Part shown: piece after piece, positions 20,160 to 41,159 of the stretch
Layout: every line of letters begins with the position of its first letter
How positions within the stretch are numbered: the first letter of the stretch is position 1
Source: Actinomycetota bacterium
GTDB taxonomy: Bacteria; Actinomycetota; AC-67
Direction: 5' to 3'
DNA: 64,000 nucleotides
Assembly (NCBI GenBank): GCA_036398095.1
Contig: DASWHR010000141.1
Location: 1,138-65,137 of the forward strand
Made by a program: the position numbers and the translations under genes
Notes under the pieces: model-generated
What the model saw: only the letters and a program-made list of their open reading frames with translations
What the model was told of the DNA's origin: nothing
Database searches by the model: none

Positions 20160-21838
20160 CCGGCAACGCCGAGATCGCGCTGGCCTGCGCATCGCTGCTG
20201 GCCGACGAACTTGCCCGCGGCGGCGTCGAAGACGTATGCGTTTCGCCCGGCGCGCGATCCACGCCGCTGGCGCTGGCGGTCGCGCGCCATCCGCGATTGC
20301 GCGTCCACGTGATCTTGGACGAACGGTCGGCGGCGTTCTTCGGCTTGGGGATCGCGAAGGCGACGCGCCGCGCCGTCGCGCTGGTGTGCACGTCGGGGAC
20401 GGCGGCGGTGAACTGGCATCCGGCGATCGTCGAGGCGCGCTATTCGCAGACGCCGCTGATCGCGCTTTCGGCCGACCGGCCACCCGAACTGCACGACACC
20501 GGCGCGAACCAGACGATCGATCAGCGCGGACTGTTCGCATCGGCGCCGCTGTGGTTCTTCGAGATGCCGGTCCCCGCGATCGAAGACGACAGCGAGCGCG
20601 TCTGGCGATCGGTCGCGGCGCGCGCCGTCGCGGTCGCGGCGGGACCGCCGGCCGGGCCGGTGCATCTGAATCTTCCATTCCGCGAGCCGCTGGCGCCCTC
20701 GGCCGAGATCCCGGATCTCGGCTCGGGCCGCGAAGGCGGTGCGCCGTGGGAGCGTCACTCCCCCGCCGCGCTCGCGGCCGATGCGCACCCGATCGAAGAC
20801 CTGGCCCGGTTGATCGAAGCGGCCCGGGACGGACTGATCGTGTGCGGCGGACTCGAAGACGACGCGCCATCGATCCTGGACCTTGCCGAGCGGATCGCGT
20901 GGCCGCTCGTCGCGGAGCCGCAATCGGGCCTTCGCCGGGACGGCGCGCTGTCGGCGCCGCAATTGATCCTTGACCGGATCGACCCGTCGGTCGTGCTGTC
21001 TGTCGGCGCGCCGCCGACGTCGCGCGCGACGCGCGCGTTGCTCGGCCGCGCCGGCCGCGTCGTGACGGTGGATCCCTCGCGATGGAACGACCCGGATCGC
21101 CGCTCGTCGTGGACGCTTCGCGCCGACGCGGCGCTGCTCGCCGACGCGCTGATCGCCACGATCAAGCCGCGCGAGGATCGCGCGTGGATCGAGCGATGGC
21201 GCGCGGCGGATGCGGCCGCGCGTGATGCGGCCGACACGCTGATGGACTCGTGGGACGAGCCGTTCGAAGGGCGCGTGGCGCGCGACGTCGCGCGGGCGGT
21301 GCCGGCCGGCGGGCTGCTGGCAATCGGATCGTCGTTGCCGGTGCGCGACTTGGATACGTTCATGGCCCCGCGCGAGGACGTGTGGGTGATCGGCAATCGC
21401 GGCGCGAGCGGCATCGACGGGTTCGTGTCAACGGTCCTGGGGATCGCGCAGACGGGCGAGCCGACGGTCGGGCTGATGGGCGACCTGACCTTCCTGCACG
21501 ACGCCGGATCGCTCGCCTGGCTCGCCTCGCGCGCGAAGCCGGCGGTGCTGGTGGTCGAAGACAACGGCGGAGGCGCGATCTTCGACCTGCTGCCGCAAGG
21601 ATCGATCCGCGAAGCCGACGATCTGTTCGTCACGCCGCACGAGCTTTCCATCGAAGCGATCGCGCGCGCCGCCGGGTGCCGCACCCGCCGCGTCACGCGC
21701 GCCGCCGACGTCGCCGAGGCGGTCGCCGAGGCGGTGGCGGCCGGCGAGACGACCGTCGTGCACGTCGAGTGCGCCCGCACGGCCGGCCCGCCCCGCCGCG
21801 CGGAGATCGCCGCAGCCGTCGCACACGTGACGAAGTAG
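20156..21838 (+). CDS. menD: 2-succinyl-5-enolpyruvyl-6-hydroxy-3-cyclohexene-1-carboxylate synthase (thiamine-PP enzyme).
   Basis: Three-domain TPP enzyme (GDLTFLHD TPP motif). GTGA overlap with the menA stop. The track ORF start at 19988 is an upstream extension. Confidence 0.85.
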   Translation: MTGNAEIALACASLLADELARGGVEDVCVSPGARSTPLALAVARHPRLRVHVILDERSAAFFGLGIAKATRRAVALVCTSGTAAVNWHPAIVEARYSQTPLIALSADRPPELHDTGANQTIDQRGLFASAPLWFFEMPVPAIEDDSERVWRSVAARAVAVAAGPPAGPVHLNLPFREPLAPSAEIPDLGSGREGGAPWERHSPAALAADAHPIEDLARLIEAARDGLIVCGGLEDDAPSILDLAERIAWPLVAEPQSGLRRDGALSAPQLILDRIDPSVVLSVGAPPTSRATRALLGRAGRVVTVDPSRWNDPDRRSSWTLRADAALLADALIATIKPREDRAWIERWRAADAAARDAADTLMDSWDEPFEGRVARDVARAVPAGGLLAIGSSLPVRDLDTFMAPREDVWVIGNRGASGIDGFVSTVLGIAQTGEPTVGLMGDLTFLHDAGSLAWLASRAKPAVLVVEDNGGGAIFDLLPQGSIREADDLFVTPHELSIEAIARAAGCRTRRVTRAADVAEAVAEAVAAGETTVVHVECARTAGPPRRAEIAAAVAHVTK

Positions 21839-21851
21839 CCGAGCCGGACAG

Positions 21852-22220
21852 TTGCGCAACAAGTTTGTTGCGCGCTATGCTCTCCCTATGCCCGATCCCA
21901 TTCAGCGAAAGATCAAGGCCTTGGTGGATTCGCTCGGCGGTTCCGTGGTCGCAGAACTGCTCGGGGTCGATCGTTCGCAACCCTCGCGCTGGAAGAGTGG
22001 CAAGAGCCAGCCGTCGGCCCAGATGCGCGGGCGGATCCTCGACCTCGAATACGTGCTCTCTCGGCTGGAGGAGATCTTCGAACCGGCGGTCGCGGTGGAC
22101 TGGCTCTACGGGATCAACGCGTTTCTCGGGCATCAGCGACCGATTGACGTGATGCGCATCCGGGGGGTCACGGAAGTCATCGGAGCCGTCGACGCCGAAG
22201 CAGGTTTGGCGTTTGCCTGA
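21852..22220 (+). CDS. Xre-family HTH antitoxin of a RES-Xre (MbcA/ParS-like) module.
   Basis: N-terminal HTH (LVDSLGGSVVAELLGVDRSQPSRW) and a C-terminal DUF2384-like toxin-binding domain (GRILDLEYVLSRLEEIF...AVDWLY). Confidence 0.65.
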   Translation: MRNKFVARYALPMPDPIQRKIKALVDSLGGSVVAELLGVDRSQPSRWKSGKSQPSAQMRGRILDLEYVLSRLEEIFEPAVAVDWLYGINAFLGHQRPIDVMRIRGVTEVIGAVDAEAGLAFA

Positions 22221-22770
22221 TCTCTACCGCGTCTTTCCCTATGATCCGGACGCGGCCCCACACGAGCCGGGCGGGGCGCTCCATGCTCCCCGAGATCGTC
22301 AGGGCAACGGACGCGCGGACAACCCAGGCCGCTACAGCGTCGTGTACTTCGCTGCGACACCTGCCGCAGCGGCCGCAGAACGCTTTCAATCCTTTGCCGG
22401 ACGCCGCGTGACGCCTGCCCACCTGCGTGGCGGCCGATCGGGACTGCCCTTGGCACTAGCGAACGTCTCAGTTCGACGCGACGACGCTCGCAATCTGGAC
22501 GACCCGGCTGCGCTCCAAGAACACGCCTTGATTCCCTCGGACGTCGCGACGCGCGATCGCCATGTCACGCAGGCCTGGGCATTGCGCTTGTGGGAGGCGG
22601 GCTTCCCCGGTGTGCGCTACTGGTCGGCCATCGAGGCCAAGTGGCCGGTGATCGCGCGGTGGTCGCTCGATGACGTGCGCGTGGAGCAGGTCGAGCCGCT
22701 CACCGTCTTCCACGCCGCGCTGCGGGAAGCGGCGGCCCTGCTCGGCATCGAGATCGGACGCAGTCGCTAG
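22213..22770 (+). CDS. RES-domain toxin (MbcT/ParT-like NAD+-targeting toxin).
   Basis: RES-domain layout with a conserved Arg context (GRYSVVYFAATP) and later Glu/Ser residues. 8-nt overlap with the Xre gene. Confidence 0.6.
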   Translation: MPDLYRVFPYDPDAAPHEPGGALHAPRDRQGNGRADNPGRYSVVYFAATPAAAAAERFQSFAGRRVTPAHLRGGRSGLPLALANVSVRRDDARNLDDPAALQEHALIPSDVATRDRHVTQAWALRLWEAGFPGVRYWSAIEAKWPVIARWSLDDVRVEQVEPLTVFHAALREAAALLGIEIGRSR

Positions 22771-22880
22771 GAGGGTGCTGAAAAAGACCGACCCGTGCCT
22801 GGTCGGACTTCAATCAGCCCAGGTCGGAGGGTTAACGTCGGGCGGGCATGCATGCAGACACTCACTTTTTCAGCACCCTC

Positions 22881-22884
<4 letters not shown>
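22767..22884. mobile_element. 118-bp MITE-like element, copy 1, with 20-bp terminal inverted repeats (CTAGGAGGGTGCTGAAAAAG ... CTTTTTCAGCACCCTCCTAG).
   Basis: Near-identical copy at 45805..45922. The terminal CTAG supplies the TAG stop of the RES toxin (+) and of menF (-). Internal palindromes (gcatgcatgc, gttaac). Confidence 0.65.
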
Positions 22885-24091
<1,207 letters not shown>

Positions 24092-24095
<4 letters not shown>

Positions 24096-24793
24096 GCGCG
24101 CGTTCCGATCAAGATCTGGACGATGCCGCCGCCGGGAGTGAGGCGGCCGACGTCGCGGAAGCCGGCGCGCACGAGCATGGCGAGCATCTCGTCGGGCGTG
24201 GGAAGGTAGGCGACCGAACGCGGCAGATACGCATACGCCGCGCGGTTCGACAGCAGCCCGCCGATCATCGGCACGATCCTCTTGAAGTAGACGGCATGTC
24301 CGGCGCGCAACACCGGATTGCGCGGCTCCGCGGTCTCGAGGATCGCGACGCGTCCGCCGGGGCGAAGCGCGCGCGCCATCTCGGCGAACAGCACCGACAG
24401 ATCCGAGACGTTGCGCAGCGCGAATCCGCACGTGATCCCGGCGGCCGCGCCGTCGCGGACGGGAAGGCGAAGCGCGTCGGCTTGAGCGAGCCGCGTCAGG
24501 CCACGCTCCTTCGCGCGGACGAGCATCTCGCCGGCGAAATCCATGCCGATCGCGTGCCATCCGCGGCGCTGGACCTCGAAACAGAAATCGCCGGTTCCGC
24601 AGGCGAGGTCGAGCACGACCGCGCCGGGCTCGACACCGAGCGTGCCGGCGGCGCGGCGGCGCCAGCCGCGATCCATCCCGAAAGTCATCACGCGATTGAC
24701 GGTGTCGTAGCGCGCGGCGATCGCGTCGAACATGGCTCGCACCGCGCGGGCTTTTTCTTCGCCGGCCGGCAGCGGCGCTACTCGGCGGGCCAT
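24092..24793 (-). CDS. menG: Demethylmenaquinone methyltransferase (UbiE/MenG).
   Basis: MFDAIAARYDTVNRVMTFGMDRGWRR, the UbiE signature. SAM motif I VLDLACGTGD. ATGA overlap with the menF start. Confidence 0.85.
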
Positions 24794-25566
24794 GCCGCCT
24801 CCAGATATCCGGCGGGGCGGCGGCGCGCCTGCTCGCGCGTGGCGGCGATCTCGGCCGCGTCGCCGGTTCGCTCGATGTGCTCTTCCGCGACTTGCAGCAG
24901 CACGCGGCGGAAATGCTGTGCGACCAGCGCCGTTACGGCCGGGAGCAGATCGCCGAATGCGGCGACGAGCTTTGCGGCGGCTTCTTCGTCGGAGGACGCG
25001 GCGCGTTTGATCGGGGTACGCACGTATTCGTCGAACAGGCGGACCGCTTCTTCGGCGATGGATCGGGTCGCGTCGTGCTGCGCGCGGGCGAGCGCGATCA
25101 GCTCGCCAAGCGGCAGGCCGGCCGACAGCAGCCGCAAGCCGGTGCGAACCAGTTCGGCGTCGGAGGCCGCGTAGCGCGTTTGGCCGTCGATCGAGCGGCC
25201 GATCGGCAGGCCTTCCCGTTCGATCGAGGCGAGCAGCGGCGCCGGGACGCCCGATCGCTCGGCCAGCTCGTCGAGCGTGATGAACTCTTCGGGGTCGCCG
25301 TCGGTCTGCGCCGACGCGACGGCGGCGGCCAGATCCTGATCGGGTTTGGCGAGCCGGCCGGAGACCACTCGCGCCACGGCCTGCAAGGTCAAGCCCTTCC
25401 CCTGCAGGGCGCGGATGCGCCGGATCCGCTCGGCGTGATCCTTGGAGTACAGGGCGACGCGGCCGCTGCGACGCGGCGGCGGCAACAACCCTTTCGCCTG
25501 GTAGAAGCGGATCGTGTCGACACTCACGTCGCACGCCGCCGCCAGTTGCTCGACCCGATACTCCAC
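24778..25566 (-). CDS. MerR-family transcriptional regulator.
   Basis: N-terminal MerR HTH (YRVEQLAAACDVSVDTIRFYQAKGLL). Confidence 0.75.
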   Translation of the reverse strand: MEYRVEQLAAACDVSVDTIRFYQAKGLLPPPRRSGRVALYSKDHAERIRRIRALQGKGLTLQAVARVVSGRLAKPDQDLAAAVASAQTDGDPEEFITLDELAERSGVPAPLLASIEREGLPIGRSIDGQTRYAASDAELVRTGLRLLSAGLPLGELIALARAQHDATRSIAEEAVRLFDEYVRTPIKRAASSDEEAAAKLVAAFGDLLPAVTALVAQHFRRVLLQVAEEHIERTGDAAEIAATREQARRRPAGYLEAAWPAE

Positions 25567-25621: not shown

Positions 25622-26449
25622 CTAGAGGGCGGCGATCTCGCTCATCGCGGTTTCGACGAACTCGTCCAAACGGGGCTTGCCTTCGCTGGGCCAGCCGACC
25701 GTGAGATACGTGAAGCCGGCTTCGGCTTTGGCGGCCGCGTCGTGGCGGATTTCGTCCATGGTCTGCGACAGGCTCAGCGCGGTGGACCGCGCGATCGACG
25801 ACGGGTCGCGGCCGGCGGCGCGGGCGGCGTCGTCCACGATCCCGCTGCGCCGCTTCAGATCGTCGGGATTGCCGAAGGTGTGCCACACGTCGGCAGTACG
25901 GCCGACGAGCGCCAGCATCCGCGGACCGTGCCCGCCGACCCAGATCGGCGGATGCGGTCGCTGCACCGGCTTCGGGCTGTAGCCGCCTTCGAGGCGGTAG
26001 TGAGTTCCTTCGAAGCGCGGATCGTCTTGCGTCATCAGCGCGCGTATCACCCCGATCGCTTCCTCGAGCCGTTCGATGCGGTCGCCCGCGCGGGGGAAGT
26101 CGATGCCGAGGCGGCGATGCTCGGGCTCGTGCCAGGCCGCGCCGACGGCAAGCTCGAGCCGGCCGCCCGAGATGTGATCGACCGTGACGGCTTCAGTCGC
26201 CAGCATCGACGGGTGACGGTAGGTGATGCCGGTCACGAGCGTGCCGAGCCGGATCCGCGTCGTGATCGCGGCGAGGCCGGCCAAAAGCGTCCACCCTTCC
26301 AGGCACGGCCCGGCCGGATCGCCGTAGAGCGCCGTGAAATGATCGAAGACCCACGCGCCGTCGAAGCCGGCATCTTCCGCGTAGCGCGTCCGATCGACGA
26401 TCTCGTTCCAGGTGAGCTGATGCTGCGACACGTCCAGTCCGAGCTTCAT
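25622..26449 (-). CDS. LLM-class (luciferase-like) F420-dependent oxidoreductase.
   Basis: Luciferase-like monooxygenase fold (GFDGAWVFDHF, RLELAVGAAW). Confidence 0.8.
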   Translation of the reverse strand: MKLGLDVSQHQLTWNEIVDRTRYAEDAGFDGAWVFDHFTALYGDPAGPCLEGWTLLAGLAAITTRIRLGTLVTGITYRHPSMLATEAVTVDHISGGRLELAVGAAWHEPEHRRLGIDFPRAGDRIERLEEAIGVIRALMTQDDPRFEGTHYRLEGGYSPKPVQRPHPPIWVGGHGPRMLALVGRTADVWHTFGNPDDLKRRSGIVDDAARAAGRDPSSIARSTALSLSQTMDEIRHDAAAKAEAGFTYLTVGWPSEGKPRLDEFVETAMSEIAAL

Positions 26450-27213
26450 GGGATCCTCCGGCAGGTGTAGAGGTGCGTCAGATACGGAAGGACGATCACG
26501 TCCCGGCCGCGCGTGAGCGGGTCATCGTCGATGACGGCTTGCGTGTCGGCGACCACGCGTGCGCGTTCGTCGCCGGACAAGGTGGCGATGAACGATACCG
26601 ACAGGACGCGGTCGATCACGCCGGCGCGAGTGAGCGTGTGCTCGTAGCGGAACTCGTCGCGCTGCAGCGCGGTGAACGCATCGGTTCGTTCGAACGCGGC
26701 GCGCCACTCACCGCGCCAGAAGCGCATCACGTCGCCTTCGTACCGGTTGAAAATGTCGTTGAGGCGATCCACCCAGGCGACCGTCGTGTCCCGAAGGTTC
26801 CAGATCATCGTGAGCGGACCGCCGGGGCGCAAGATGCGGTGGATCTCGGCGAGCGCCGCGTCGCCGTCGAACCAGTGGAACGCCTGCGCGACGACGACGG
26901 CGTCGAATGACGCCGTCGCGAAGCACAGATGCTCGGCGGTGGACTCGGCCACGGGCACGCCGGGGGCCGCCCGGCGCAATTCCCGCACCATCGCATCGAC
27001 CGGATCGGCGCCGACGATCGTGGCGCCGCGTCCGGTCAGCGCGCGCGTCAGCTTTCCGGTTCCGCACGCCAAGTCGAGCACGCGCGCGCCCGGCGCGATG
27101 CCGCACACCTCGGCGATGCGCGCCACGGCACCGGCCGGATACCCCGGCCGCGCTCGCTCGTACTCCGCGGCCGCCGACTGAAAGCCTTCCGCGGCCGCAC
27201 CGTGGACCCGCAT
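26446..27213 (-). CDS. Class I SAM-dependent methyltransferase; start taken at MRVHGAAAEG.
   Basis: SAM motif I VLDLACGTGKLT. ATGA overlap with the downstream LLM gene. Confidence 0.75.
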   Translation of the reverse strand: MRVHGAAAEGFQSAAAEYERARPGYPAGAVARIAEVCGIAPGARVLDLACGTGKLTRALTGRGATIVGADPVDAMVRELRRAAPGVPVAESTAEHLCFATASFDAVVVAQAFHWFDGDAALAEIHRILRPGGPLTMIWNLRDTTVAWVDRLNDIFNRYEGDVMRFWRGEWRAAFERTDAFTALQRDEFRYEHTLTRAGVIDRVLSVSFIATLSGDERARVVADTQAVIDDDPLTRGRDVIVLPYLTHLYTCRRIP

Positions 27214-27376
27214 GCCCCAAGGATGGGCCAACAGATCCGGGAAGGCAAAGGAAAGGCGGAGCGGCCGAGATTGCCGATCCGATGCGATCGCCGTATTACA
27301 ATGCCGGACCGGCGCGCCTCGGACCCACCCGTCGGCATCCTGCCTGGGCGAGGCGCGGCCGTAAGGGGGAGATACC

Positions 27377-28534
27377 GTGAGGATTCGCAGCGCGATCGTC
27401 GCCGTCGTCGCCTTGACGCTTCTGGGAGCCGCGTGCTCCACGAAGCAAACCGGCGGCGAGGGCGGCGACAAGCAAGCCACCTACACCGTTCAGGTGGACG
27501 CACACACGCAAGGTGGCGAGTTCGGGTTCTACGCCTCGAAGTACTTTCCGGACGAGCTACAGGTTCATCCCGGCGACACGCTCGACTTCAAGCTGAACTG
27601 GTCGGGTGAGCCGCACTCGGTGACGTTCGGCACGCTCGTGGACGCAGGCGCGGCATCGCTCGATCCGTCGGCCGAGGAGGAACCGGCCGAGTGGCAGAAG
27701 ATTCCTCCGATGCTGCCCGAAGGACCGGGAGACGCGGTCCAGGCCTCCGTGAATCCCTGCTACGTCGAGACGGGCGAGCCGCCGAAAGAAGCCGCGTGCG
27801 AGAACCGCACCCAGCCGGCGACCTTCACCGGCGCCTACGCGCTCTACAGCAGCGGGTTCATGCCGGACGGCACGACGTTCAGCGTTACCTTGGATCCCGG
27901 CATCACGCCCGGCACGTACAACTACTTCTGCACGCTCCACCGCGGGATCATGACCGGCAAGGTCGAGGTCGTCGCCGCTTCCGGAACCGTGGCCGACGCG
28001 GCCGCGGTCGCCAAGAAAGCGGCCGACGAGATCGCCGGGATCGGGAGCACCCTCAAAGGCGCCTTCGACCAGTCCAAGAACGGCATGGGTCCGGGAACGC
28101 TGTTCGCGGGAACGACCAAGCCGGACCTGATCGAAGGCGGCACCGACGCCGGCGTGACCGAGTTTTTGCCCAAGCAAGCGACCGCCAAAGTCGGCGAGCC
28201 GGTCAAGTTCCTGCCCGTCGGCGCGCACACGGTCACGTTCAACGCCCCGCAGGACGCCGTCGAGTTCCTCACCAAAGCCCCCGACGGCACCTGGCACTTG
28301 AATCCCAAGGCGGCCGGCCCCGCCGGGTCTCCGCCCACCGGTCCTCCCGGCGACAAGCCGGTCGTCACGGACGCGGGAACCTGGAACGGCGAGGGATTCC
28401 TGAACTCGGGCATCCTGCTCGGGTTCGGCCCCCCCGGCGCGATCACCTGGCAGGTCACGTTCGGCACGGCCGGCTCGTACGAGTACCGCTGCCTGGTCCA
28501 TCCCGACATGGAAGGCTCGATCACCGTCGCGTAA
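27377..28534 (+). CDS. Two-domain cupredoxin (plastocyanin/azurin-like blue copper) lipoprotein.
   Basis: Signal with Cys (LLGAACS). Two type-1 Cu sites (HSVTF...YNYFCTLHRGIM and HTVTFN...YEYRCLVHPDM). GTG start. Confidence 0.75.
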   Translation: MRIRSAIVAVVALTLLGAACSTKQTGGEGGDKQATYTVQVDAHTQGGEFGFYASKYFPDELQVHPGDTLDFKLNWSGEPHSVTFGTLVDAGAASLDPSAEEEPAEWQKIPPMLPEGPGDAVQASVNPCYVETGEPPKEAACENRTQPATFTGAYALYSSGFMPDGTTFSVTLDPGITPGTYNYFCTLHRGIMTGKVEVVAASGTVADAAAVAKKAADEIAGIGSTLKGAFDQSKNGMGPGTLFAGTTKPDLIEGGTDAGVTEFLPKQATAKVGEPVKFLPVGAHTVTFNAPQDAVEFLTKAPDGTWHLNPKAAGPAGSPPTGPPGDKPVVTDAGTWNGEGFLNSGILLGFGPPGAITWQVTFGTAGSYEYRCLVHPDMEGSITVA

Positions 28535-28538
28535 GGCC

Positions 28539-31500
28539 ATGCGCGTAAGCGCGCGTCCCCCTCGGCGCGTCCGAGGGGGACGGCGTTTCGCGGCCGTCCT
28601 CGCGGTCGTCGCCGCGAGCGTGCCGGCGTGGACCGCAGCCGGCGGCCCGGACACGACGAAAGGCGATCGGGCAGTCGGTGCGCACGACCACGATTCGCAC
28701 GCGCACTCCCACACCGACGCCGGGCATGAGCAATCGGAAGGCTTCACGCTCGCGGCGCAGGCGGGGACGACCCCAGCCGGCAGCGCATGCAAGCCATCGA
28801 TGCCGCGGCGTGAGATCGCCCTCAGCGCGATCGCGGTCGACGTCACGCTGAATCGGTTCGGCGACCACGACCCACGCGGCCGCATGTTCGCGTTCACCGA
28901 CCTGACGGACGAGATCCGGGCGGAGGAGAAGCGCAACGCCGACGCGCGCACCGGCCGAGGCGACTACGCCGTCACGCCCGGCTTGCAGGGCGACGCGATC
29001 CAGCCGCCCGTCGTGCGAGCCCGTCCGGGCGAATGCCTTCGCCTCACGGTGCGAAACGACCTCGACGAGCCGGCGAGCCTTCACGTGCACGGCGGCGCGC
29101 TCATGGTCGGCGCCGCGCCCGCGGTCGCGACGAACCCGACGGCCACGGCCGCGCCGGGCGCGACCGTGACCTACACGTGGGCAATCCCGGCCGGCGAGCG
29201 CGAAGGGACCCACTACTTCCATTCGCACGGCGACGAGCGCGCACAAACCTCGCACGGAATGTTCGGCGCGATCGTGATCGAGCCGTCCGGCTCGCGCTGG
29301 ACCGACCCACGGACCGGCGAGGACGCCCGCGGCTGGGACGCGGTGATCACGCCTCCCGACGGCAGGGCCTTCCGCGAGTTCGCGTTGTTCTATCACGAGG
29401 TGGGCGACGAGCAGTACCAGTTGAGAGCCGCCGACGACAGCCTCGTTCCGCTCGTCGATCCGCTCCTGTCCGCGTACCGCCCCGGATCGCGGGCCATCAA
29501 CTTCCGCAGCGAGCCGTTCATGAACCGGATGCGTCTGCAGCAACGACTGACCGGCCGCTTCGACGAGTCGCTTGCATATTCGTCCTATGCCTTCGGCGAT
29601 CCGGCGACCCCGATTCTGCGCGCCTACCTGGGCGAACCGGTGAAGCAGCGGCTCGTGCACGGCGGCAGCGAGGTCTTCCACGTGCACCACGTCCACGGCG
29701 GATCGATCCGCTGGCGTCGCCAGCCCGACGCCGATTCCTCTCCGGTCAACGCGGGCCTGGACAAGCGTCCGCCGCTTACGCCCGTCGCCTCGGAGCGCAC
29801 CGACTCGCAGTCGATCGGGCCGTCGGAGACCTTCGACATCGCCGGCGACTGCGGCGCCGGCGGCTGTCAGCAATCCGCGGGCGACTTCTTGGTTCATTGC
29901 CACGTCGCCCATCACTATTTCGCAGGCATGTGGGGCATCTGGCGCGTCTACAACACGCTCCAGGACGGCTCCGCCTCGACCGACGCGCTGCCGCCGCTGC
30001 CGCCACTGCGCGCCGGCACCGTGGTTGCGGCGGTAACGTCTTCGGCGCTGGCCGGCCGGAGCGTGACCTTCGCCGGACGCGCGCGCACCGTCGCCGATGC
30101 ATCGGAATGGGCGGCGATGCAGCTGCCGCCGGCCGGCCCGCCCGGCGAATACGACGCGTCGGTCTGGGATTGGCGCGTCGAGGGCGGGATCGTGGTGGGC
30201 GAGCCCGAGGACGCGCGCCGATGGCCGGGACATGCCCCGGCCGCGCCCGGCCGCAGGCCCCCGATCTTGTTCGATCCGCAGACCGGGCTGCTTGCCTATC
30301 CGTTCCTGCGGCCGCAGCTCGGCCGGCGGCCGCCGTTCGCGCCCGGCCACGCCCCCTCGCCGTTCCTGGACCCCGGCCTGGGGCCCGATCCGCCCGCGCC
30401 CGGAGCCTCCGGCCCTGCGAGCCTGTGCCCGGCGGGCACGACGATCCGCACGTTCTTCGTCAACGCCGTCTCGCTGGCGGTCCCGCTCAATCGCCGTGCC
30501 GGCCTGACCGATCCGAGCGGGCAGCTCTACGTGCTCGCCGAGGACGAAGCGGCCGCGCGCGCGAACCCGGCGCTCCGCGGTCCGCTTGCGATCCGCGCCA
30601 ACGCCTCCGAGGATTGCGTGGACGTGGTGCTCGCATCCTCGATCCCGGACGGACCGATCAACCACAGATTCTCGAAGGTGAATCTTCACATTCACTTCGT
30701 CCAGTTCGACGTCCAAGCCTCCGACGGTGTCGTCAACGGCTTCAACTACGAGCAGTCGGTCCGTCCCTACACGGCTGATCCGGTGACGGCACGCGCCGCG
30801 GCCGCGGGCGCGCCCGGCGTCACCGTGTCGGCCGCCGGCCGCTTCCGTCCGGGGATCGTCGTGGGGATCGGTCTGGGCACCGACCGCTTCGAAGCGCGAC
30901 GCATCTCCCGGATCGAGGGCACCCGGCTGATCTTGGACGCACCGCTCGCGCGCTCGCATCCCGACGGCGAGATCGTCTCCACCGAGTTCGTTCGCTACCG
31001 CTGGTACCCGGACGTACAGTCGGGGACGGCATACTTCCACGACCACGTCAACGCGATCGCATCGTGGCGACACGGATTGTTCGGCGCGCTCGTCGTCGAA
31101 CCGCCCGGATCCACCTATCACGATCCCGCGAGCGGCACACAGATCCGCAGCGGCGCGATCGCCGACATCGTCACTAACGCGCGCGTTTCGGCCGACGTCA
31201 CCGGATCGTTCCGCGAGGCGGTGCTGTTCTTGCAGGACGACCAGCCGATCGGACACGAAGGCCGGTCGAGCGGCAGCGCCATCAACCAGCGAATCGAGCC
31301 GCTTCGCGGCCGCGATCCCCCGCCCCGCGCATTCGCCAGCACCCGCGGCGATCCCGAGACGCCGCTGATCCGGGCGCACCTGGGCGATCCCGTCGTGGTA
31401 CGCACGCTCGTGGCCGGCACCAACGACATCCACACGATCCACGTGGACGGCCACTGGTTCCGGCTCGAGCCGTGGAGCCGCTCGTCGCGACCGGTTTCGA

Positions 31501-32828
31501 CGGCGCGAATCGGGATCTCGGAGCGAATGGACCTCGTGTTGCCGGCCGCCGGCGGCCCGCAACGCATGCCGGGCGACTATCTGTATACCAACGGCCGCGC
31601 GTTCAAGATTCGCGAAGGATCGTGGGGTCTGCTTCGCGTGCTCGACCCGAGCGACGAGTCGATCCGCGCGCTCCCCGGACGCGAACCGGCGACGCCGGCG
31701 ACGAGCGTGTGTCCCCCCGGCGCGCCGACGCGGCGGTTCCGTGCGGCCGCGGTTCCCGCGACGATCCCATCCCTGGGAGGCGAGGCCGCGGCATTCGTCG
31801 CCGAAAGCGCGCGCAGCGCCGTCGAAGCCGGCGGCCTTCCGGAGCCGTTCGTGCTTCGCGCATCGGTCGGCGACTGCATCGAGGTCTCGCTGGCCAACGC
31901 GACCGGCGCGCCCGTGTCGCTGCATGCCGATTTGCTCGCCTACGACCCATCGTCCTCGGCCGGGGTGGCCGCGGGGAGCGAGCCCGTGCAGGCGGCCGCG
32001 CCCGGGACCTCGCGCACCTACACGTTCTTCGCATCACCGGAGATCGGCGAGACGGTCGCCATGCTGCGCGACGGCGCCGATCTCGCGGGCGGCTCGCGGC
32101 GCGGCTTGCACGGCGCCGTGGTCGTCGGTCCCCCCGGGACCGTCTATCGCGATCCTCGGACCGGCGCCGAGACATCGTCAGGGTGGCTGACGGACGCGGT
32201 CGTACCCGGCCGCACGGCGTGGCGGGACGCGGTGCTGCTGTGGATCGATGACGACGCCGGCTTGGGAACCCACCGGATGCCGTACTCCACGGCGGTCGGG
32301 GGCGCGGTTGCGGTCAACGGCCGAACCGAGCCGCTGCGCGAACGACGCGCCACCGACTCAAAGACCGCGCGCGCCTACGATCCCGCCACGCACGGCGATC
32401 CGGCGACTCCGCTGATCCGTGCGGAGGCCGGCGATGCGATCCGCATCGCGGTCCTGGTCCCGTCGGGCGAGCAGGTGCAGGTCTTCTCCGTCGAAGGCCA
32501 CCGCTGGCCTATCGAGCCGGGGATGCGCGGGAGCGCTCTGGTGTCTTCGGCGGCGGTCGGCGGCTTGGACGCGATGGTGGCGAGGTTCCGGGCCGGCGCG
32601 CCTGCCGATTATCTTTGGGTCAACCACCGCATCCCGTATCTGGAGGCGGGAATGTGGGGACTGCTGCGCGTTCGCGACTGCGGCGCCGCCGGGATCGATC
32701 ACCTGCCCGGGTCGCCGTGCGACGGAATCGGGATCGGCGTCGCCGGGATCGCGGCCGCGGCGCTGGCCGCCGGGCTCGGCGCCTATGCGGTGCATCGTCG
32801 TCGCCGCGGCCGGCGCGCAACCGCTTAA
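28539..32828 (+). CDS. Giant (1429 aa) secreted multicopper oxidase built from three tandem two-cupredoxin units, with a C-terminal hydrophobic anchor and Arg-rich tail.
   Basis: Unit 1 carries the full ligand set (LHVHGG, HYFHSHG, FHVHHVHGG, HCHVAHHYFAGMWGIWRV). Units 2 and 3 end in GSWGLLRV / AGMWGLLRV and keep HxH motifs but lack the HCH cysteine. C-terminus GIGIGVAGIAAAALAAGLGAYAVHRRRRGRR. Confidence 0.8.
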   Translation: MRVSARPPRRVRGGRRFAAVLAVVAASVPAWTAAGGPDTTKGDRAVGAHDHDSHAHSHTDAGHEQSEGFTLAAQAGTTPAGSACKPSMPRREIALSAIAVDVTLNRFGDHDPRGRMFAFTDLTDEIRAEEKRNADARTGRGDYAVTPGLQGDAIQPPVVRARPGECLRLTVRNDLDEPASLHVHGGALMVGAAPAVATNPTATAAPGATVTYTWAIPAGEREGTHYFHSHGDERAQTSHGMFGAIVIEPSGSRWTDPRTGEDARGWDAVITPPDGRAFREFALFYHEVGDEQYQLRAADDSLVPLVDPLLSAYRPGSRAINFRSEPFMNRMRLQQRLTGRFDESLAYSSYAFGDPATPILRAYLGEPVKQRLVHGGSEVFHVHHVHGGSIRWRRQPDADSSPVNAGLDKRPPLTPVASERTDSQSIGPSETFDIAGDCGAGGCQQSAGDFLVHCHVAHHYFAGMWGIWRVYNTLQDGSASTDALPPLPPLRAGTVVAAVTSSALAGRSVTFAGRARTVADASEWAAMQLPPAGPPGEYDASVWDWRVEGGIVVGEPEDARRWPGHAPAAPGRRPPILFDPQTGLLAYPFLRPQLGRRPPFAPGHAPSPFLDPGLGPDPPAPGASGPASLCPAGTTIRTFFVNAVSLAVPLNRRAGLTDPSGQLYVLAEDEAAARANPALRGPLAIRANASEDCVDVVLASSIPDGPINHRFSKVNLHIHFVQFDVQASDGVVNGFNYEQSVRPYTADPVTARAAAAGAPGVTVSAAGRFRPGIVVGIGLGTDRFEARRISRIEGTRLILDAPLARSHPDGEIVSTEFVRYRWYPDVQSGTAYFHDHVNAIASWRHGLFGALVVEPPGSTYHDPASGTQIRSGAIADIVTNARVSADVTGSFREAVLFLQDDQPIGHEGRSSGSAINQRIEPLRGRDPPPRAFASTRGDPETPLIRAHLGDPVVVRTLVAGTNDIHTIHVDGHWFRLEPWSRSSRPVSTARIGISERMDLVLPAAGGPQRMPGDYLYTNGRAFKIREGSWGLLRVLDPSDESIRALPGREPATPATSVCPPGAPTRRFRAAAVPATIPSLGGEAAAFVAESARSAVEAGGLPEPFVLRASVGDCIEVSLANATGAPVSLHADLLAYDPSSSAGVAAGSEPVQAAAPGTSRTYTFFASPEIGETVAMLRDGADLAGGSRRGLHGAVVVGPPGTVYRDPRTGAETSSGWLTDAVVPGRTAWRDAVLLWIDDDAGLGTHRMPYSTAVGGAVAVNGRTEPLRERRATDSKTARAYDPATHGDPATPLIRAEAGDAIRIAVLVPSGEQVQVFSVEGHRWPIEPGMRGSALVSSAAVGGLDAMVARFRAGAPADYLWVNHRIPYLEAGMWGLLRVRDCGAAGIDHLPGSPCDGIGIGVAGIAAAALAAGLGAYAVHRRRRGRRATA

Positions 32829-34165: not shown

Positions 34166-35010
34166 GGCTCGCGACGATAGTCGCGCTGCGCGGCACGGGC
34201 AAACGCCTCGTCGAACCCCTCGTAGTGGGGAATACCCGGCGGCGCGATCTCGCCTCGGATCTGCGGCACGAGCGCCGCCGCGACGGCGCGGCCGATCTCC
34301 TCGTGCGTCTCGAACGGCCAATGGATGCCGTCCGCGTTGAGCTTTTCGACCCACGGCTCGACCAGCGGCCACGATTCCACGAACGGAAAACCGTGGCGTG
34401 CGGCGATGGTGCGTTGCATCGCGGTCCGCGCGGTGTGCTGCGGATGCAGGTGTCCGTAATACCCGCTGCGGTGGCTGGTCGGTCCCACGACGACGCCCGG
34501 CGCGCCCCATGTCAGCGCGCGGACCTCGTGAAGGATCCGATCGAACAGGCGCTCGAACTCCCCTGCCGGGACGCGCGCGAAGCGGCCGCGGGTCAGCCGG
34601 ACGCCCGCCGGGTGGACCGCGCGAAGGAGCGCCCGATACCGGCGGCGGAGTGCCGCCGGACGCACAAAGGGAATCATCGCCTCGAGCGGCGGCGGCACAC
34701 CGACCGGCGCGTGGTCGAAGGATCCGAGCCCGAGCACAACCCCGTCGGCGCGCATCAGAACCTCGAACATGATGTGGCGGTTCTTGGTGACGTCATAGTG
34801 CGTGCCCCGCACCCCGGTTCCCGGATGAGCCACGACCCCAACGATCACGCGGCGGCCGATCGCATCCTCGATCGCGCGCGCCGCGACGTTCGGGTACAGG
34901 GCCGGATCGTCGGGGAGCAGCGGTCCGGCCGGACCGGTGAACGCGGTCGAGTCGGCGATCACCGCAAGGCGAAGCGGTCCGTCCGGATCGGCGTACAACG
35001 GGCTCCCCAT
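34162..35010 (-). CDS. SGNH/GDSL-like hydrolase family protein.
   Basis: N-terminal LRLAVIADSTA (GDS-like block) and a C-terminal His region. GTGA overlap with the downstream M20 gene. Confidence 0.55.
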   Translation of the reverse strand: MGSPLYADPDGPLRLAVIADSTAFTGPAGPLLPDDPALYPNVAARAIEDAIGRRVIVGVVAHPGTGVRGTHYDVTKNRHIMFEVLMRADGVVLGLGSFDHAPVGVPPPLEAMIPFVRPAALRRRYRALLRAVHPAGVRLTRGRFARVPAGEFERLFDRILHEVRALTWGAPGVVVGPTSHRSGYYGHLHPQHTARTAMQRTIAARHGFPFVESWPLVEPWVEKLNADGIHWPFETHEEIGRAVAAALVPQIRGEIAPPGIPHYEGFDEAFARAAQRDYRREP

Positions 35011-35202
35011 GACGGCGGCGATGGTATCGCGACCCGCGGCCTCTGCGTCGTTTTGCTTAGCAGGCTAGGAAAAAAGAGTCACGCCCCGCCGTCATTTCGC
35101 CCGGGTTCGCTCCTTGGAGCGGCATACGCGAAAGTTATGGAAACGTGCGGTCCTGCCGACACTACAGCGGGGGGAACGAGGACGAAGGTCGGGAGCGCAT
35201 TG

Positions 35203-36204
35203 ATGCCGAACCAGATCGTTTCCCGCGCGTACGCGCCATCCCAGAGGGCGGCCGACACGCGCGCACGCACCGTTTCACGCCACGCGGCCGTCGGATTGCG
35301 GCTCGCCGCGGCCGGCGCAGCCTCGCTCGCCATCGCAGCGACCGGCGCGACCGCCTCGCCGCTGATCCCGATCGGCGTCGCGATCGCTGCCGTTTGCGGG
35401 CTTCAAGGCGGCATCGTCGCCGGCGCGATCTGCGGCGCGCTGGTGGTCACGGCGTCGCTGCCCCACCTGGCCGGAGAGACCGGCGCCGGATTCCAAGCGC
35501 TCAACCACGCGGCGACGTGGGCGGTGCTGTTTCCCTTGACGGGAACGACGGCCGGCCTGGTCCATGCGCTTCGCGCGCGTCCCGATGCGTCCGGTGAGCG
35601 ACGCCGGCTCGCGGCCGACCTGCACGACGGTGTCGCGCAAACGCTCGCTCATCTTCGGCTCGAACTGGACATGCTCGCCCACCCCGACCTCGGGCGCGTA
35701 AGCGACCCGGAGCGGCTGGCACGCCTTGCGCGCGTCGCCGACCGCACCCTCACCGACGTTCGCGCGCTCATCAGCGACCTTGCCGCCCCGATGCCGCCCG
35801 GCGGCCTGCCGGACGCGCTCCGCGAGCACGTTCATGCCGTGCAAGGATCCTTGGGCCCTTCGATCACGCTGGACGCGCCGGAGCCGACACGGGCAGGCGC
35901 ACTCGTCGAAGGACAACTGCTTCGCATCGCCCAGGAGGCCATCTCCAACGCCGTGCGACACTCGGGGGGGACGGCCGTGCACGTGCGGCTCGCGCCTGAT
36001 CCGGACGGCGCGACCCGCATGACGATCGACGACGACGGGTGCGGCCTCGCGCCCGGCGCCGCTCGTGACGGCGGCCTGGGCTTGGACACGATGCGCGAAC
36101 GCGCGCACGCCATCGGCGCGACGATCGCGATCGGCGTCCGTGAGGGCGGCGGAACACGCGTCGAGGTCCTCGCCCCCGCGACGCGCATGTCGAGGACCGC
36201 ATGA
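35203..36204 (+). CDS. Membrane sensor histidine kinase (HisKA_3 type).
   Basis: TM helices. H-box LAADLHDGVAQTLAHL. HATPase_c motifs (NAVRHSGG, DDDGCGL, GLGLDTMRERAHAIGA). Confidence 0.75.
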   Translation: MPNQIVSRAYAPSQRAADTRARTVSRHAAVGLRLAAAGAASLAIAATGATASPLIPIGVAIAAVCGLQGGIVAGAICGALVVTASLPHLAGETGAGFQALNHAATWAVLFPLTGTTAGLVHALRARPDASGERRRLAADLHDGVAQTLAHLRLELDMLAHPDLGRVSDPERLARLARVADRTLTDVRALISDLAAPMPPGGLPDALREHVHAVQGSLGPSITLDAPEPTRAGALVEGQLLRIAQEAISNAVRHSGGTAVHVRLAPDPDGATRMTIDDDGCGLAPGAARDGGLGLDTMRERAHAIGATIAIGVREGGGTRVEVLAPATRMSRTA

Positions 36205-36893
36205 GCACTGCGATCGAGGCCGGGGTCGGGGCCGGGGTCGGGGCCGGGGTCGAGGCCGGAACCGTCCGCGTCGTCCTGATCGACGACCATACGCTGGTGC
36301 GTCAAAGCGTCGGATTGATCGTCGGCGCGGCCGGTGGCTTCACCGTCGTCGCCGAAGCAGGCTCGGCCGAGGCCGGCCTTGCCGCCGTCGCGCTGCATCG
36401 TCCCGACATGGTCGTGCTGGACGTCGGCCTGCCCGGCCGAAGCGGGATCGAGATCGCGCAGGCGCTCAAGGCCGCGCATCCGGCAATGCGAATCATGTTC
36501 TTGACGATGCACGAAGACGAGGCGACGATCGCGAGCGCCGTCGCGCTCGGCGCCGACGGCTATGTGCTCAAGTCCGCCTCGACCGACGAACTGCTGATGG
36601 CGCTTCGCGCGATCGCGGCCGGCGCATCATTTCTGAGTCCCACCGTCGCGCGAAGCGTGATTCATCGCTCCCAGCCACGCTCGACCACCGTCGAGCTGAC
36701 CGATCGAGAGCTGGAAATCGTCCGTATGCTTGCCGAAGGCGCGCGGCCGGCTCAGATCGCAAAGACGCTGACGCTCTCGTTGCGGACGGTTCGCAACCAT
36801 CTGGCCAACGTCTACGCGAAGCTGGGCGTTCAAAGCGCCGCCCAAGCCGTCGCCGAGGCATACCGCCGCGGCTTCGTCGCCCGCTCGCTATAA
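36201..36893 (+). CDS. NarL/LuxR-family response regulator with an N-terminal GVGAGVGAGV low-complexity repeat.
   Basis: Receiver domain (VVLIDDH...DMVVLDVGLPGRSG) and LuxR HTH (LTDRELEIVRMLAEGARPAQIAKTLTLSLRTVRNHL). ATGA overlap with the kinase gene. Confidence 0.85.
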   Translation: MSTAIEAGVGAGVGAGVEAGTVRVVLIDDHTLVRQSVGLIVGAAGGFTVVAEAGSAEAGLAAVALHRPDMVVLDVGLPGRSGIEIAQALKAAHPAMRIMFLTMHEDEATIASAVALGADGYVLKSASTDELLMALRAIAAGASFLSPTVARSVIHRSQPRSTTVELTDRELEIVRMLAEGARPAQIAKTLTLSLRTVRNHLANVYAKLGVQSAAQAVAEAYRRGFVARSL

Positions 36894-39204: not shown

Positions 39205-39963
39205 ATGAGTATCGGAACGATGTCCCGGCGAGGAGTGAGCCTCGTCGTCGCGCTGCTGCTGGCCGCGCTGGCGACGGGTGCGTGGGTCTCCTACGTTCGC
39301 TCCATCGAGCGACGCGCGGTCGACGGCAACGCCACCCTGCAGATCTACATCGCCGGCGACGTGATCCCCGCCGGCACGACGGCCGAGCAGGCCGACGGCA
39401 ACAAGCTGCTCGTCAAGACCGGCGTCCCCAAGCGGCTCGTCGCCGAAGGCGCGGTCACCGAGCTGCCGCAGCTTCGCGGCACCGTCGCCTCGGTCACGAT
39501 CCAGAAAGGCGAGCAGATCCTTCGCACGCGCTTTACCTCGCCCGAGCAGGCCGCGCGGTTGCTGCAGATTCCGCCGGGTCTTCATGCGATGAGCGTCGAG
39601 GTGGCCGCCCCGCCGGGCGTCGGCGGATTCGTGCAACCTCACGATCGCGTGTCGGTGATCGCGAAGGTCTCGCCCGAGAACACCGATCCGGTCGTGCGCT
39701 TCCTGTTGCAGGACGTCGAGGTGCTCGCCGTCGGCTCGCGGACGAGCGCCGCCGCGCCGGCGTCGGGATCCCGGGAAGCCGCGCGCGAGAGCGCCGAACC
39801 GGTTCCGACCGATCGGATGCTGCTCACGCTCGCGGTCTCGCCGTTCCAGGCCGAGCAGCTCGCATTCGCGGTGCTGGAAGGCCAGGTGTACTTCACGCTG
39901 CTTCCGCCGGGCACGAAAGCAACCGGCACGCCGGGCCGGACGGCCGGAAACGTGTTCGGGTGA
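39205..39963 (+). CDS. cpaB: Flp pilus assembly protein CpaB/RcpC (SAF domain).
   Basis: N-terminal TM helix plus SAF-like and RcpC-like regions. Position between tadG and cpaE. Confidence 0.7.
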   Translation: MSIGTMSRRGVSLVVALLLAALATGAWVSYVRSIERRAVDGNATLQIYIAGDVIPAGTTAEQADGNKLLVKTGVPKRLVAEGAVTELPQLRGTVASVTIQKGEQILRTRFTSPEQAARLLQIPPGLHAMSVEVAAPPGVGGFVQPHDRVSVIAKVSPENTDPVVRFLLQDVEVLAVGSRTSAAAPASGSREAARESAEPVPTDRMLLTLAVSPFQAEQLAFAVLEGQVYFTLLPPGTKATGTPGRTAGNVFG

Positions 39964-39968
39964 TTTCG

Positions 39969-41159
39969 ATGATCGCGTTGATCGAGGCCGATCCCAACTT
40001 CCAAGCCCGCATCTCAAACGAGCTGGGATCACGGACGGAGCCGCTGCAGGTCCTGGGCTTGTCCGACGTCGAGCGGTTGACGTCGGGCGAGCCGGACCTG
40101 CCGGACGTTCTGATCCTGGGCCCGTCGGTTGGCGCACCCGACGCGCTCACCATCGCCGAACGGCTGCGCGCCGGCGCACCGGAGGTGAGCGTCGTGCTGA
40201 TCACCGACGCGCTCACGAGCGACCTGCTGCAAGCGGCGTTGCGCGCGGGCGTTCGCGACGTGCTCGGCTCGTCGTTCACCGGCGCCCAGCTGCAAGATGC
40301 GATCGAGCGGGCCGAGCAGGTCTCGCACGGCGTGCGGGACCGCGGCATTCCGCACGACGATCGCGAGCCGTCCGCTCCGTGCCGCGTCGTCACCGTGTTC
40401 TCCGCCAAGGGCGGCGTCGGCAAGTCATTCATCGCCGCGAACCTGGCGGTCCTGCTGGCGCAGCGTCACACTCGCGTCGCGCTGGTCGATCTGGACCTGC
40501 AGTTCGGGGATCAGGCGATCATGATGCAACTGTTCCCCGGCCGGACGATGTCCGAGGCTGCGGCCAACGTCGAGCGGCTCGATGTGGAATCGCTCCCCGG
40601 GTACATGACGCCGCACAAGTCCGGGCTGCACCTGCTGGCCGCGCCGCTCGAGCCCGGCCTGGCCGAGACGATCCAGCCGTCGGCGACGCAGCGAATCCTG
40701 CGGCTGCTTCGCCAGTCGTTCGACATCGTCGTGATCGACACGCCGGCGCTGTTCACCGAACACGTGCTTGCCGCGCTCGACGAATCCGACGAGTGCATCT
40801 TCATGACCAGCCTCGACGTTCCCAGCATCAAGAACACGAAGCTGGCATTGCAGACGCTCGAGATGCTGGGCGTCGGCAAGGAACGCATTCGACTGCTGCT
40901 CAACCGCGCCGACGCGCAGGTGGGGCTGCGCGTGCAAGAGGTCGAACGGATGCTCGGCGCGCGCGTCACGACCCAGATCCCGTCGTCGCGGGAAGTTCCG
41001 CTGTCCATCAACCAAGGCACGCCGCTTGCGCTGGCTGATCCGCGTTCGGGCGTTACGGTCGCACTCCGCGAGCTGGCCGAATCGGTCGGCCGCGGCGCGC
41101 CCGTCCACGAGCCCGACGCCAAAGGCGGCCGGTTCCGTTTGAAGAGGAAGGTGTCATGA
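39969..41159 (+). CDS. cpaE: CpaE/TadZ: receiver-like N-domain fused to a ParA/MinD-type ATPase.
   Basis: Deviant Walker A VFSAKGGVGKSFIAANLA. Confidence 0.8.
   Translation: MIALIEADPNFQARISNELGSRTEPLQVLGLSDVERLTSGEPDLPDVLILGPSVGAPDALTIAERLRAGAPEVSVVLITDALTSDLLQAALRAGVRDVLGSSFTGAQLQDAIERAEQVSHGVRDRGIPHDDREPSAPCRVVTVFSAKGGVGKSFIAANLAVLLAQRHTRVALVDLDLQFGDQAIMMQLFPGRTMSEAAANVERLDVESLPGYMTPHKSGLHLLAAPLEPGLAETIQPSATQRILRLLRQSFDIVVIDTPALFTEHVLAALDESDECIFMTSLDVPSIKNTKLALQTLEMLGVGKERIRLLLNRADAQVGLRVQEVERMLGARVTTQIPSSREVPLSINQGTPLALADPRSGVTVALRELAESVGRGAPVHEPDAKGGRFRLKRKVS

Follow-up and report, generated by a model that had tools for sequence, protein, structure and literature searches.

How would a bacterium use a multicopper oxidase of 1429 residues whose gene lies directly behind that of a protein with two blue-copper domains? 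The question is posed by two open reading frames (ORFs) on the plus strand of a 64,000-nt stretch of DNA with ~70% G+C (GenBank GCA_036398095.1, contig DASWHR010000141.1; hereafter the window), namely ORF A (27377–28534, 385 aa) and ORF B (28539–32828, 1429 aa). The G+C content at their third codon positions (0.87 for ORF A, 0.86 for ORF B) is gene-like for a 70% GC genome. An earlier note on this DNA had described the pair as an extracytoplasmic oxidase system with a dedicated cupredoxin partner. Our preferred reading, to which we give somewhat less than an even chance, is that the products would form an extracytoplasmic O2-reducing metal oxidase with a blue-copper electron-relay partner, with Mn(II) as the best guess for the substrate; it is based on sequence comparisons and structure models. 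The enzyme class, that of MnxG, is known, and what is different here is the conserved redox partner and the membrane anchoring in unstudied lineages.

Domains and copper sites of the oxidase

In Pfam searches, ORF B matched Cu-oxidase_3 (two stretches) and Cu-oxidase_2, with both families represented in the first part of the protein. Segments 88–480, 620–1040 and 1040–1385 are mutually homologous (BLASTP E-values of 3e-26, 3e-23 and 2e-32), and hhalign aligned these three units with one another at a probability of 100% (E-values from 1e-49 to 1e-59, ~316 columns). Each segment is a two-domain unit, which brings the number of cupredoxin domains in ORF B to six. An AlphaFold2 model of residues 600–1390 only (predicted local distance difference test, pLDDT, 88.4; predicted template-modelling score, pTM, 0.90) was in agreement with this fold: in Foldseek searches its best match was the manganese oxidase subunit MnxG of Bacillus (PDB 9bxa; E 7e-60, template-modelling score, TM, 0.72), followed by ceruloplasmin (TM 0.54) and by factors V/VIII. 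The domain count of the earlier note thus survived domain annotation, unit alignment and partial modelling.

Only one of the three two-domain units has a complete catalytic set of type-1 (T1) and trinuclear ligands. We aligned 57 full-length oxidase sequences from two clades (described below) and found the T1 ligands H381, C454, H459 and M464 to be invariant. They lie in domain 2 (residues ~263–478, positions 29325–29972; Cu-oxidase_2 at 348–470), which holds the sole complete T1 site. Equally invariant are the eight trinuclear histidines, of which H384, H386, H453 and H455 belong to domain 2 and H717, H719, H834 and H836 to domain 3 (~626–865, 30414–31133). The two domains are joined by a conserved connector of ~150 aa (29973–30413), and domain 3 carries a beta insertion of ~70 aa (745–815). 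In a ligand map across the units, the T1 cysteine is replaced by N1018 in domain 4 (~866–1040, 31134–31658) and by N1362 in domain 6 (~1223–1385, 32205–32693). Alignment and modelling together show one complete predicted path from a T1 to a trinuclear site, in which the Cys-His motif would connect the T1 centre of domain 2 with a cluster where domains 2 and 3 meet.

The two other interfaces retain remnants of copper sites. Between domains 4 and 5 these are H965 and H968 (plus H972) on one side and H1129/D1131 on the other, the latter being all that is left of the ligands in the degenerate domain 5 (~1041–1222, 31659–32204). At the domain 6/1 interface, four histidines of trinuclear type from domain 1 (~88–262, 28800–29324; Cu-oxidase_3 at 156–250), H182, H184, H228 and H230 (region 29082–29228), come together with H1363 (32625–32627) and the invariant H1321 (32499–32501) of domain 6, without amounting to a full partner set. 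The domain-1 histidines are 85–100% conserved in both clades, while the aligned segment of Bacillus MnxG retains one of the four; their retention is therefore a family-specific feature of ORF B. Judged from this conservation, the cluster formed with H1321 and H1363 may be an extra copper site or a site for a substrate metal.

The similarity to MnxG extends over the entire protein. With phmmer, ORF B matched MnxG of Bacillus sp. PL-12 (9bxa_A, a single chain of 1227 aa) at an E-value of 1.3e-102 in six stretches covering all domains, the strongest being that of domain 2 (150 bits), and residues 600–1390 alone gave 3.6e-72. Like ORF B, MnxG of the Bacillus Mnx complex (MnxE3F3G) is one chain of six cupredoxin domains with a T1 site in domain 2 only and its trinuclear cluster between domain 2 and domain 3, and the motifs of the T1 region (FGDPATPILR…, HCH…GMWG…RV…TLQDG) are near-identical in the two proteins. 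Bacterial six-domain multicopper blue proteins, including MnxG of Pseudomonas putida and the MofA-like proteins of Leptothrix, have been described as a class (Vasin et al., 2013; PMC3600357), and in its published layout, too, domain 2 holds the T1 copper while the trinuclear cluster sits between domain 2 and domain 3 (PMC3600357). ORF B shares the triplicated units, the T1 site in domain 2, the eight-histidine cluster at domains 2/3 and the full-length similarity to MnxG. By sequence and model it is thus a distant homologue within this MnxG-like class, but it falls outside the Mnx complex family if that family is defined narrowly. The earlier note had missed this relationship when it called the size unusual: the 1429 aa stand, but they are to be expected for a class already described.

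Several features set ORF B apart from Bacillus MnxG. Its operon contains two genes only, one of them for a cupredoxin, in place of an operon with mnxE and mnxF (no direct search for MnxE/MnxF homology was made), and the protein carries a C-terminal membrane anchor. MnxG has a much shorter connector from domain 2 to domain 3, and it lacks the domain-3 insertion that is present in both clades of the ORF B family. Lastly, the hosts here are non-sporulating Actinomycetota and Chloroflexota, as opposed to the Bacillus spores of Mnx.

Could such a long reading frame be an artefact? In that case three two-domain oxidase genes would have been misjoined during assembly or annotation. We found more than 1100 database proteins that match ORF B. 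The best 120, which are 53–77% identical to it apart from the window's own protein (P0001, 100%), come from four sources (NCBI, JGI, ENA and Logan), and all but one partial sequence are 1317–1645 aa long (119/120 at or above 1300 aa). A locus survey, for which one genome per species was scanned, returned 80 loci, 56 of them with a single uninterrupted ORF of at least 1300 aa. In a few assemblies of one ENA study the gene does appear as two or three ORFs. These split calls, in three assemblies (ERZ250395xx), yield 345/440/367 aa (L081:8211-12444), 835/556 aa (L085:7886-11656) and 1180+165 aa (L086:7786-12100), with irregular break points away from the unit boundaries, and are more likely to be sequencing frameshift errors than truly split genes. 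As MnxG was also solved as one chain, the misjoining of three separate genes is refuted by the full-length relatives, and we regard its probability as practically nil; the relatives are single ORFs of about 1400 aa, as the note's account of one giant gene implied.

The ends of ORF B point to export. The N-terminus is a signal peptide (28539–28640) with a twin-arginine-like GRRFAAV motif. We rejected twin-arginine translocation as a family feature, as only 12/119 relatives have the RR motif. A transmembrane anchor (residues 1396–1418, 32724–32792) followed by an Arg-rich tail closes the protein, and a C-terminal hydrophobic helix was found in at least 83/119 relatives.

The di-cupredoxin and its place beside the oxidase

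ORF A matched the Pfam family Copper-bind (PF00127) with 51.3 bits against a gathering score of 21.2, and plastocyanin and amicyanin models as well as PDB chains matched both of its halves. The first cupredoxin domain (~35–198, 27479–27970) has the T1 ligands H80, C185, H188 and M192, and the second (~241–384, 28097–28528) has H284, C372, H375 and M378, so that the T1 pattern His…Cys-x2-His-x(2-4)-Met is present in each. Both sets are kept in 34–38 of 38 orthologues from related loci, and the ligands are invariant or at least 90% conserved in an alignment of 53 sequences, in line with the two complete type-1 sites that had been claimed. An AlphaFold2 model (pLDDT 92.5, pTM 0.88) consists of two beta-sandwiches separated by a helix of 26 residues (208–233, 27998–28075; pLDDT above 90). 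In a Foldseek search it matched the Greek-key beta-sandwich of plastocyanin (2gim) with a TM of 0.69 relative to the target, and no solved protein with the two-domain arrangement was found (TM of 0.15–0.23 for the whole model). Neither Pfam, nor profile and PDB searches, nor Foldseek detected similarity of ORF A to anything but cupredoxins.

ORF A is probably exported and lipid-anchored, judging from its N-terminus. The signal peptide ends in a lipobox-like sequence (…ALTLLGAAC20; 27377–27436), in which position -3 is Gly and not the Leu of the PROSITE-type pattern; in most of 40 orthologues, a hydrophobic stretch is followed by [AG]-C-[GST]. An inserted loop of domain 1 carries a cysteine pair, C128/C141, that is invariant in the 53-sequence alignment. 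Together with the lipobox, this pair fits an exported protein, and a disulfide between the two residues would be consistent with such a location. From their sequences, then, both products are predicted to be exported and membrane-tethered, as expected of the extracytoplasmic system that had been envisaged. Variants of the gene were also seen upstream of the oxidase, namely two tandem copies in L005, L015 and L016 and a longer version of 632–669 aa in L016 and L019.

The conserved T1 signature argues for electron transfer by ORF A and not for copper trafficking, and a role as electron shuttle is a reasonable inference from it. A different role would follow if ORF B were a self-sufficient Mn(II) oxidase, with ORF A acting as a structural, stabilising or copper-delivery subunit, in the way suggested for MnxE/F, instead of relaying electrons. 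The homology of ORF B to MnxG is compatible with this, MnxG requires its copper-binding accessory subunits MnxE/F, and ORF A shares their position in the operon. However, two complete Cys-His-His-Met T1 sites in nearly all orthologues are a signature of electron transfer, and ORF A resembles cupredoxins only; we therefore hold the self-sufficient enzyme to be unlikely.

Next to the oxidase, the di-cupredoxin gene is strongly conserved in one part of the family. The relatives fall into a closer clade of 50–77% identity, from Actinomycetota/Acidimicrobiales, Chloroflexota (SAR202, Dehalococcoidia, Caldilineaceae), Dormibacterota/Limnocylindria and Rokubacteria, and a distant clade of 39–44% identity, from Nitrospirales, Proteobacteria, Planctomycetota and Trueperaceae. 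The oxidase is also carried by metagenome-assembled genomes assigned to Litorilinea aerophila (L036, L070), and in L070 the cupredoxin gene adjoins it. We searched the loci with ORF A by tblastn. Among the closer-clade loci that were informative, with at least 1.3 kb on both sides of the oxidase, a di-cupredoxin gene adjoins the oxidase in 24/28; three of the others look like ORF-boundary artefacts, and one (L030) lacks the gene. In the distant clade none of the 16 informative loci has it by this search. The survey thus shows, at the level of sequence, a gene pair conserved across at least four phyla. In 34 loci the cupredoxin gene is found upstream of the oxidase gene and on the same strand; 6 others have it downstream, with five of these in convergent orientation and a 13-nt overlap. 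The co-transcription proposed by the earlier note accordingly agrees with the layout in the window, a same-strand unit with 4-nt spacing, but cannot be universal in the family.

The cupredoxin is also the sole recurrent neighbour of the closer-clade oxidase among 507 clustered flanking ORFs; no SCO1, CopC or cytochrome gene recurs, and a YtkA-like protein was found in 4 loci. Distant-clade oxidases have a different set of neighbours, with a gene for a CarboxypepD_reg-domain protein upstream and genes for two di-haem CCP/MauG-like cytochromes and a Rieske protein downstream. This set was seen in L050, L052–L055, L063, L067 and others (e.g. L053:4693-13589). From the gene order, an exchange of protein redox partners seems to have taken place between the two oxidase clades. 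We also considered the domain-3 insertion of ORF B as a docking module specific for the cupredoxin, and rejected it, since the insertion is found in the cupredoxin-less distant clade as well.

In the reverse direction the association is looser. Among seven di-cupredoxin homologues on long contigs, an oxidase gene was adjacent in 4/7 and not in 3/7. The pairing is therefore strongly conserved as seen from the oxidase, while the word "dedicated" that had been used for the partner is too strong. An oxidase that nearly always comes with the cupredoxin, together with a cupredoxin that does not always come with the oxidase, is the pattern expected for an enzyme and its carrier. One solitary homologue (P0178, L083:6417-6905), with no oxidase nearby, has as its neighbour the gene of a small cupredoxin that is SoxE/sulfocyanin-like, a hint that di-cupredoxins can serve other blue-copper electron chains.

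These observations bear on the main rival of our reading, a cupredoxin-fed respiratory end point. Here the di-cupredoxin would bring electrons from a quinol-oxidising complex (bc-type or alternative complex III, compare auracyanin in Chloroflexus), and the oxidase would pass them to O2 outside the membrane, as a non-pumping branch or an O2 scavenger with no metal or small-molecule substrate. A membrane-anchored carrier that is also found away from the oxidase, and an oxidase that almost always keeps this carrier adjacent, would both be accounted for; the cytochromes and Rieske protein of the distant clade are likewise carriers of respiratory type, and in the window menaquinone biosynthesis genes adjoin the operon. 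That neighbourhood is not kept in other loci, however, and the conserved histidine clusters at the 6/1 and 4/5 interfaces, along with the high conservation of domain 2 between ORF B and MnxG, suggest metal chemistry that goes further than the oxidation of a protein. Moreover, we know of no characterised six-domain oxidase that works as a protein-fed terminal oxidase. On balance we consider a respiratory end point of this kind rather unlikely.

Another solitary di-cupredoxin homologue is located near genes for a cation-efflux protein and a P-type ATPase, an arrangement that would suit copper homeostasis. In such a scenario ORF B would be a cuprous oxidase like CueO/PcoA that detoxifies Cu(I) at the surface, with ORF A as a copper-binding partner like CopI or CopC. 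ORF B does have a His-rich stretch behind its signal peptide (H49, H51, H54, H56, H58 and H63; 28683–28727), and 1.8 kb upstream of ORF A there is a MerR-family regulator gene (24778–25566, minus strand) with two MerR-type helix-turn-helix stretches. The CopA/PcoA and CueO models, however, gave weak and partial matches confined to domain 1, of 43.9 bits against a cut-off of 478.95 (TIGR01480) and 29.1 against 525 (NF008205), respectively. A comparable His-rich stretch occurs in only 13/119 relatives, and ORF B has no Met-rich segment. The locus contains no cop, cus or cso genes, with no CopA, CopZ or CsoR gene near the pair, and none of these recurs across the 80 loci. Copper homeostasis is thus highly improbable as the function, and the view that this is not a canonical copper-resistance locus holds.

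Electron flow and the possible substrate

In the mechanism that we propose, the oxidase module would be located on the outer face of the cytoplasmic membrane. ORF A would act as redox partner and deliver single electrons via its two T1 centres into the T1 site of ORF B, and from this site in domain 2 they would pass along the Cys-His motif to the trinuclear cluster at the domain 2/3 interface, where O2 would be reduced to water. We thus infer an exchange of electrons between ORF A and ORF B at the cell surface, with O2 as the final acceptor. The primary reductant would most likely be a metal ion; given the homology to MnxG, Mn(II) is the first candidate, followed by Fe(II). Oxidation of the metal would take place on the oxidase or close to it, and the conserved histidine clusters at the 6/1 and 4/5 interfaces might be involved. 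In the operon, the di-cupredoxin would take the place of the accessory subunits MnxE and MnxF of Bacillus.

Mn(II) is our best guess because the characterised bacterial six-domain oxidases, MnxG of Bacillus and of Pseudomonas, are Mn(II) oxidases, and because the T1 region is the part of ORF B best conserved with MnxG. The eukaryotic six-domain oxidases are ferroxidases. Several points weigh against our reading. At ~23% identity in the Foldseek alignment, the similarity of ORF B to 9bxa is remote. The NCBIfam equivalog model for MnxG (NF041487) matched ORF B in six stretches with 123.7 bits, which is far below its cut-off of 3100, so that the substrate of MnxG is not safely transferable to ORF B. 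For the clade of ORF B, both substrate and direction of electron flow are putative, and an oxidase that has a T1 site and a trinuclear cluster of its own could in principle do without a protein partner. The three di-cupredoxin homologues without an adjacent oxidase point the same way, as does the lack of any fused cupredoxin-oxidase in a BLASTP comparison of ORF A with 200 oxidase sequences of the ORF B family. Lastly, co-divergence of the two proteins is weak: their pairwise identities are correlated with a Mantel r of 0.40, a value reached in 0/2000 permutations, and with a Spearman coefficient of 0.13. The cupredoxin diverges faster than the oxidase, with a median identity of 36% as compared to 57%.

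There is precedent for a T1 cupredoxin at the side of a multicopper core. In Nmar_1354 of Nitrosopumilus maritimus, a pendant cupredoxin places its T1 copper 13.5 Å from the T1 copper of the core (PMC11761707). Both this enzyme (PDB 9cck) and the three-domain nitrite reductase NirK of Hyphomicrobium denitrificans (PDB 2dv6) have such an extra domain, and cupredoxin-tethered enzymes were among the top or high Foldseek matches of both ORF A (9cck being the top one) and ORF B. By analogy, the tethered cupredoxins would occupy a position comparable to that proposed for ORF A. In Nmar_1354 and NirK, however, a single cupredoxin is fused to a homotrimeric two-domain core, whereas ORF A is a separate protein that has two T1 domains and a probable lipid anchor of its own. 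Auracyanins of Chloroflexus are likewise exported, membrane-anchored T1 cupredoxins that carry electrons. They differ from ORF A in being single-domain proteins that are not known to be linked to a six-domain oxidase; Chloroflexota also carry the ORF A/ORF B pair.

The match to Nmar_1354, a cupredoxin-bearing hydroxylamine (NH2OH) oxidase and the top structural match of ORF A, raises the question of whether the substrate might instead be an organic or nitrogen compound, such as phenolics or humics in a laccase-like reaction, or NH2OH as in Nmar_1354, with the di-cupredoxin as an extra entry point for electrons. Multicopper oxidases are often promiscuous, and the oxidase family is common in soil bacteria. 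Yet the TM of ORF A against 9cck is only 0.19 and reflects shared cupredoxin folds alone, and the homologue nearest to the oxidase acts on a metal. Such a substrate seems improbable to us.

A more far-reaching variant of the metal oxidase is suggested by comparison with ceruloplasmin, which has T1 sites in domains 2, 4 and 6 and its trinuclear cluster between domains 1 and 6 (PMC3600357). Ceruloplasmin and hephaestin have the same six-domain pseudo-threefold fold as ORF B, at an identity of 11–14%, and hephaestin shares with it a single C-terminal membrane anchor. Unlike ceruloplasmin, ORF B has a T1 site in domain 2 only, and its sole complete cluster is that at domains 2/3. Conceivably, the two blue-copper centres that domains 4 and 6 have lost could be provided in trans by the di-cupredoxin, if it docks at the vestigial 4/5 and 6/1 interfaces with their conserved histidines. 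The pair would then form a ceruloplasmin-like machine with three T1 sites that couples the oxidation of extracellular Mn(II)/Fe(II) to the reduction of O2 or, via the lipid-anchored carrier, to the respiratory chain. We regard this arrangement as a long shot.

The branch to which ORF B belongs is large, and its members come from abundant, for the most part uncultured lineages of soil, Antarctic desert, groundwater and the deep ocean. Among the enzymes by which organisms form manganese oxides, the bacterial six-domain copper oxidases have been studied best, and to our knowledge their known biochemistry all comes from Bacillus spores and Pseudomonas. If ORF B is a metal oxidase, metagenomic surveys would have to count more organisms as oxidisers of Mn (or Fe), and the pair would provide a simpler, two-protein system in which to study how electrons enter a six-domain oxidase. 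Were it a cupredoxin-fed terminal oxidase, it would represent a new type of extracytoplasmic respiratory branch, and a machine with three T1 sites would imply unrecognised metal-based energy conservation, or large-scale formation of Mn oxides, in abundant uncultured Actinomycetota, Chloroflexota (including marine SAR202) and Dormibacterota. Homologues of MnxG and MofA have already been counted in Actinobacteria in a bioinformatic survey (bioRxiv 10.1101/2022.11.10.515945), and metagenomic studies assign "MnxG" by hidden Markov model (PMC13439051). Surveys of the latter kind ignore partner genes, and in the open-access literature we found no published description of a conserved pair of di-cupredoxin and six-domain oxidase.

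Operon leader and neighbouring genes

ORF A starts with GTG at 27377, 5 nt behind a strong Shine-Dalgarno sequence, AAGGGGGAG (27363–27371). Its TAA stop codon (28532–28534) is separated from the ATG of ORF B at 28539 by GGCC, which confirms the 4-nt spacing that had been reported. The leader (27308–27371, plus strand) also contains, directly before the Shine-Dalgarno sequence, an inverted repeat of 14 nt (27308–27321 and 27349–27362) with a 27-nt spacer and 86% complementarity, which could be a hairpin or an operator. Scans of the locus revealed no sigma-70 consensus promoter, no Rfam family at an E-value below 0.1, and terminator-like sites at chance level only. Upstream of ORF A there is a divergent gene for a UbiE-like methyltransferase; on the downstream side, ORF B shares its last 4 nt with a convergent gene for an M20 peptidase. 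With flanking genes in these orientations, ORF A and ORF B are a candidate two-gene operon.

The menaquinone-biosynthesis-like cluster just upstream of the operon occupies positions 17191–24560 and 26446–27480. It encodes a MenE-like AMP-binding enzyme, a MenB-like protein of the enoyl-CoA hydratase family, a MenA-like UbiA prenyltransferase and a MenD-like thiamine pyrophosphate enzyme, and on the minus strand a MenF-like chorismate-binding enzyme and the UbiE-like methyltransferase. A functional link to these genes was considered and dropped because they do not accompany the oxidase elsewhere. Within the cluster lies a probable toxin-antitoxin pair (21852–22770), consisting of an Xre/MbcA/ParS-like antitoxin (23.1 bits, slightly below the cut-off of 24.5) and a RES-domain toxin (50 bits).

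Beyond the M20 peptidase gene, we found genes for a histidine kinase (HisKA_3/HATPase_c) and a LuxR-type response regulator (34225–36893), and further on genes for Tad/Flp pilus assembly (39205–44457), namely RcpC/CpaB, a T2SSE ATPase and a T2SSF membrane protein. At the other end of the window, the minus strand (4534–6642) encodes a large protein of surface type, in which four fibronectin type III stretches and one Calx-beta domain were recognised.

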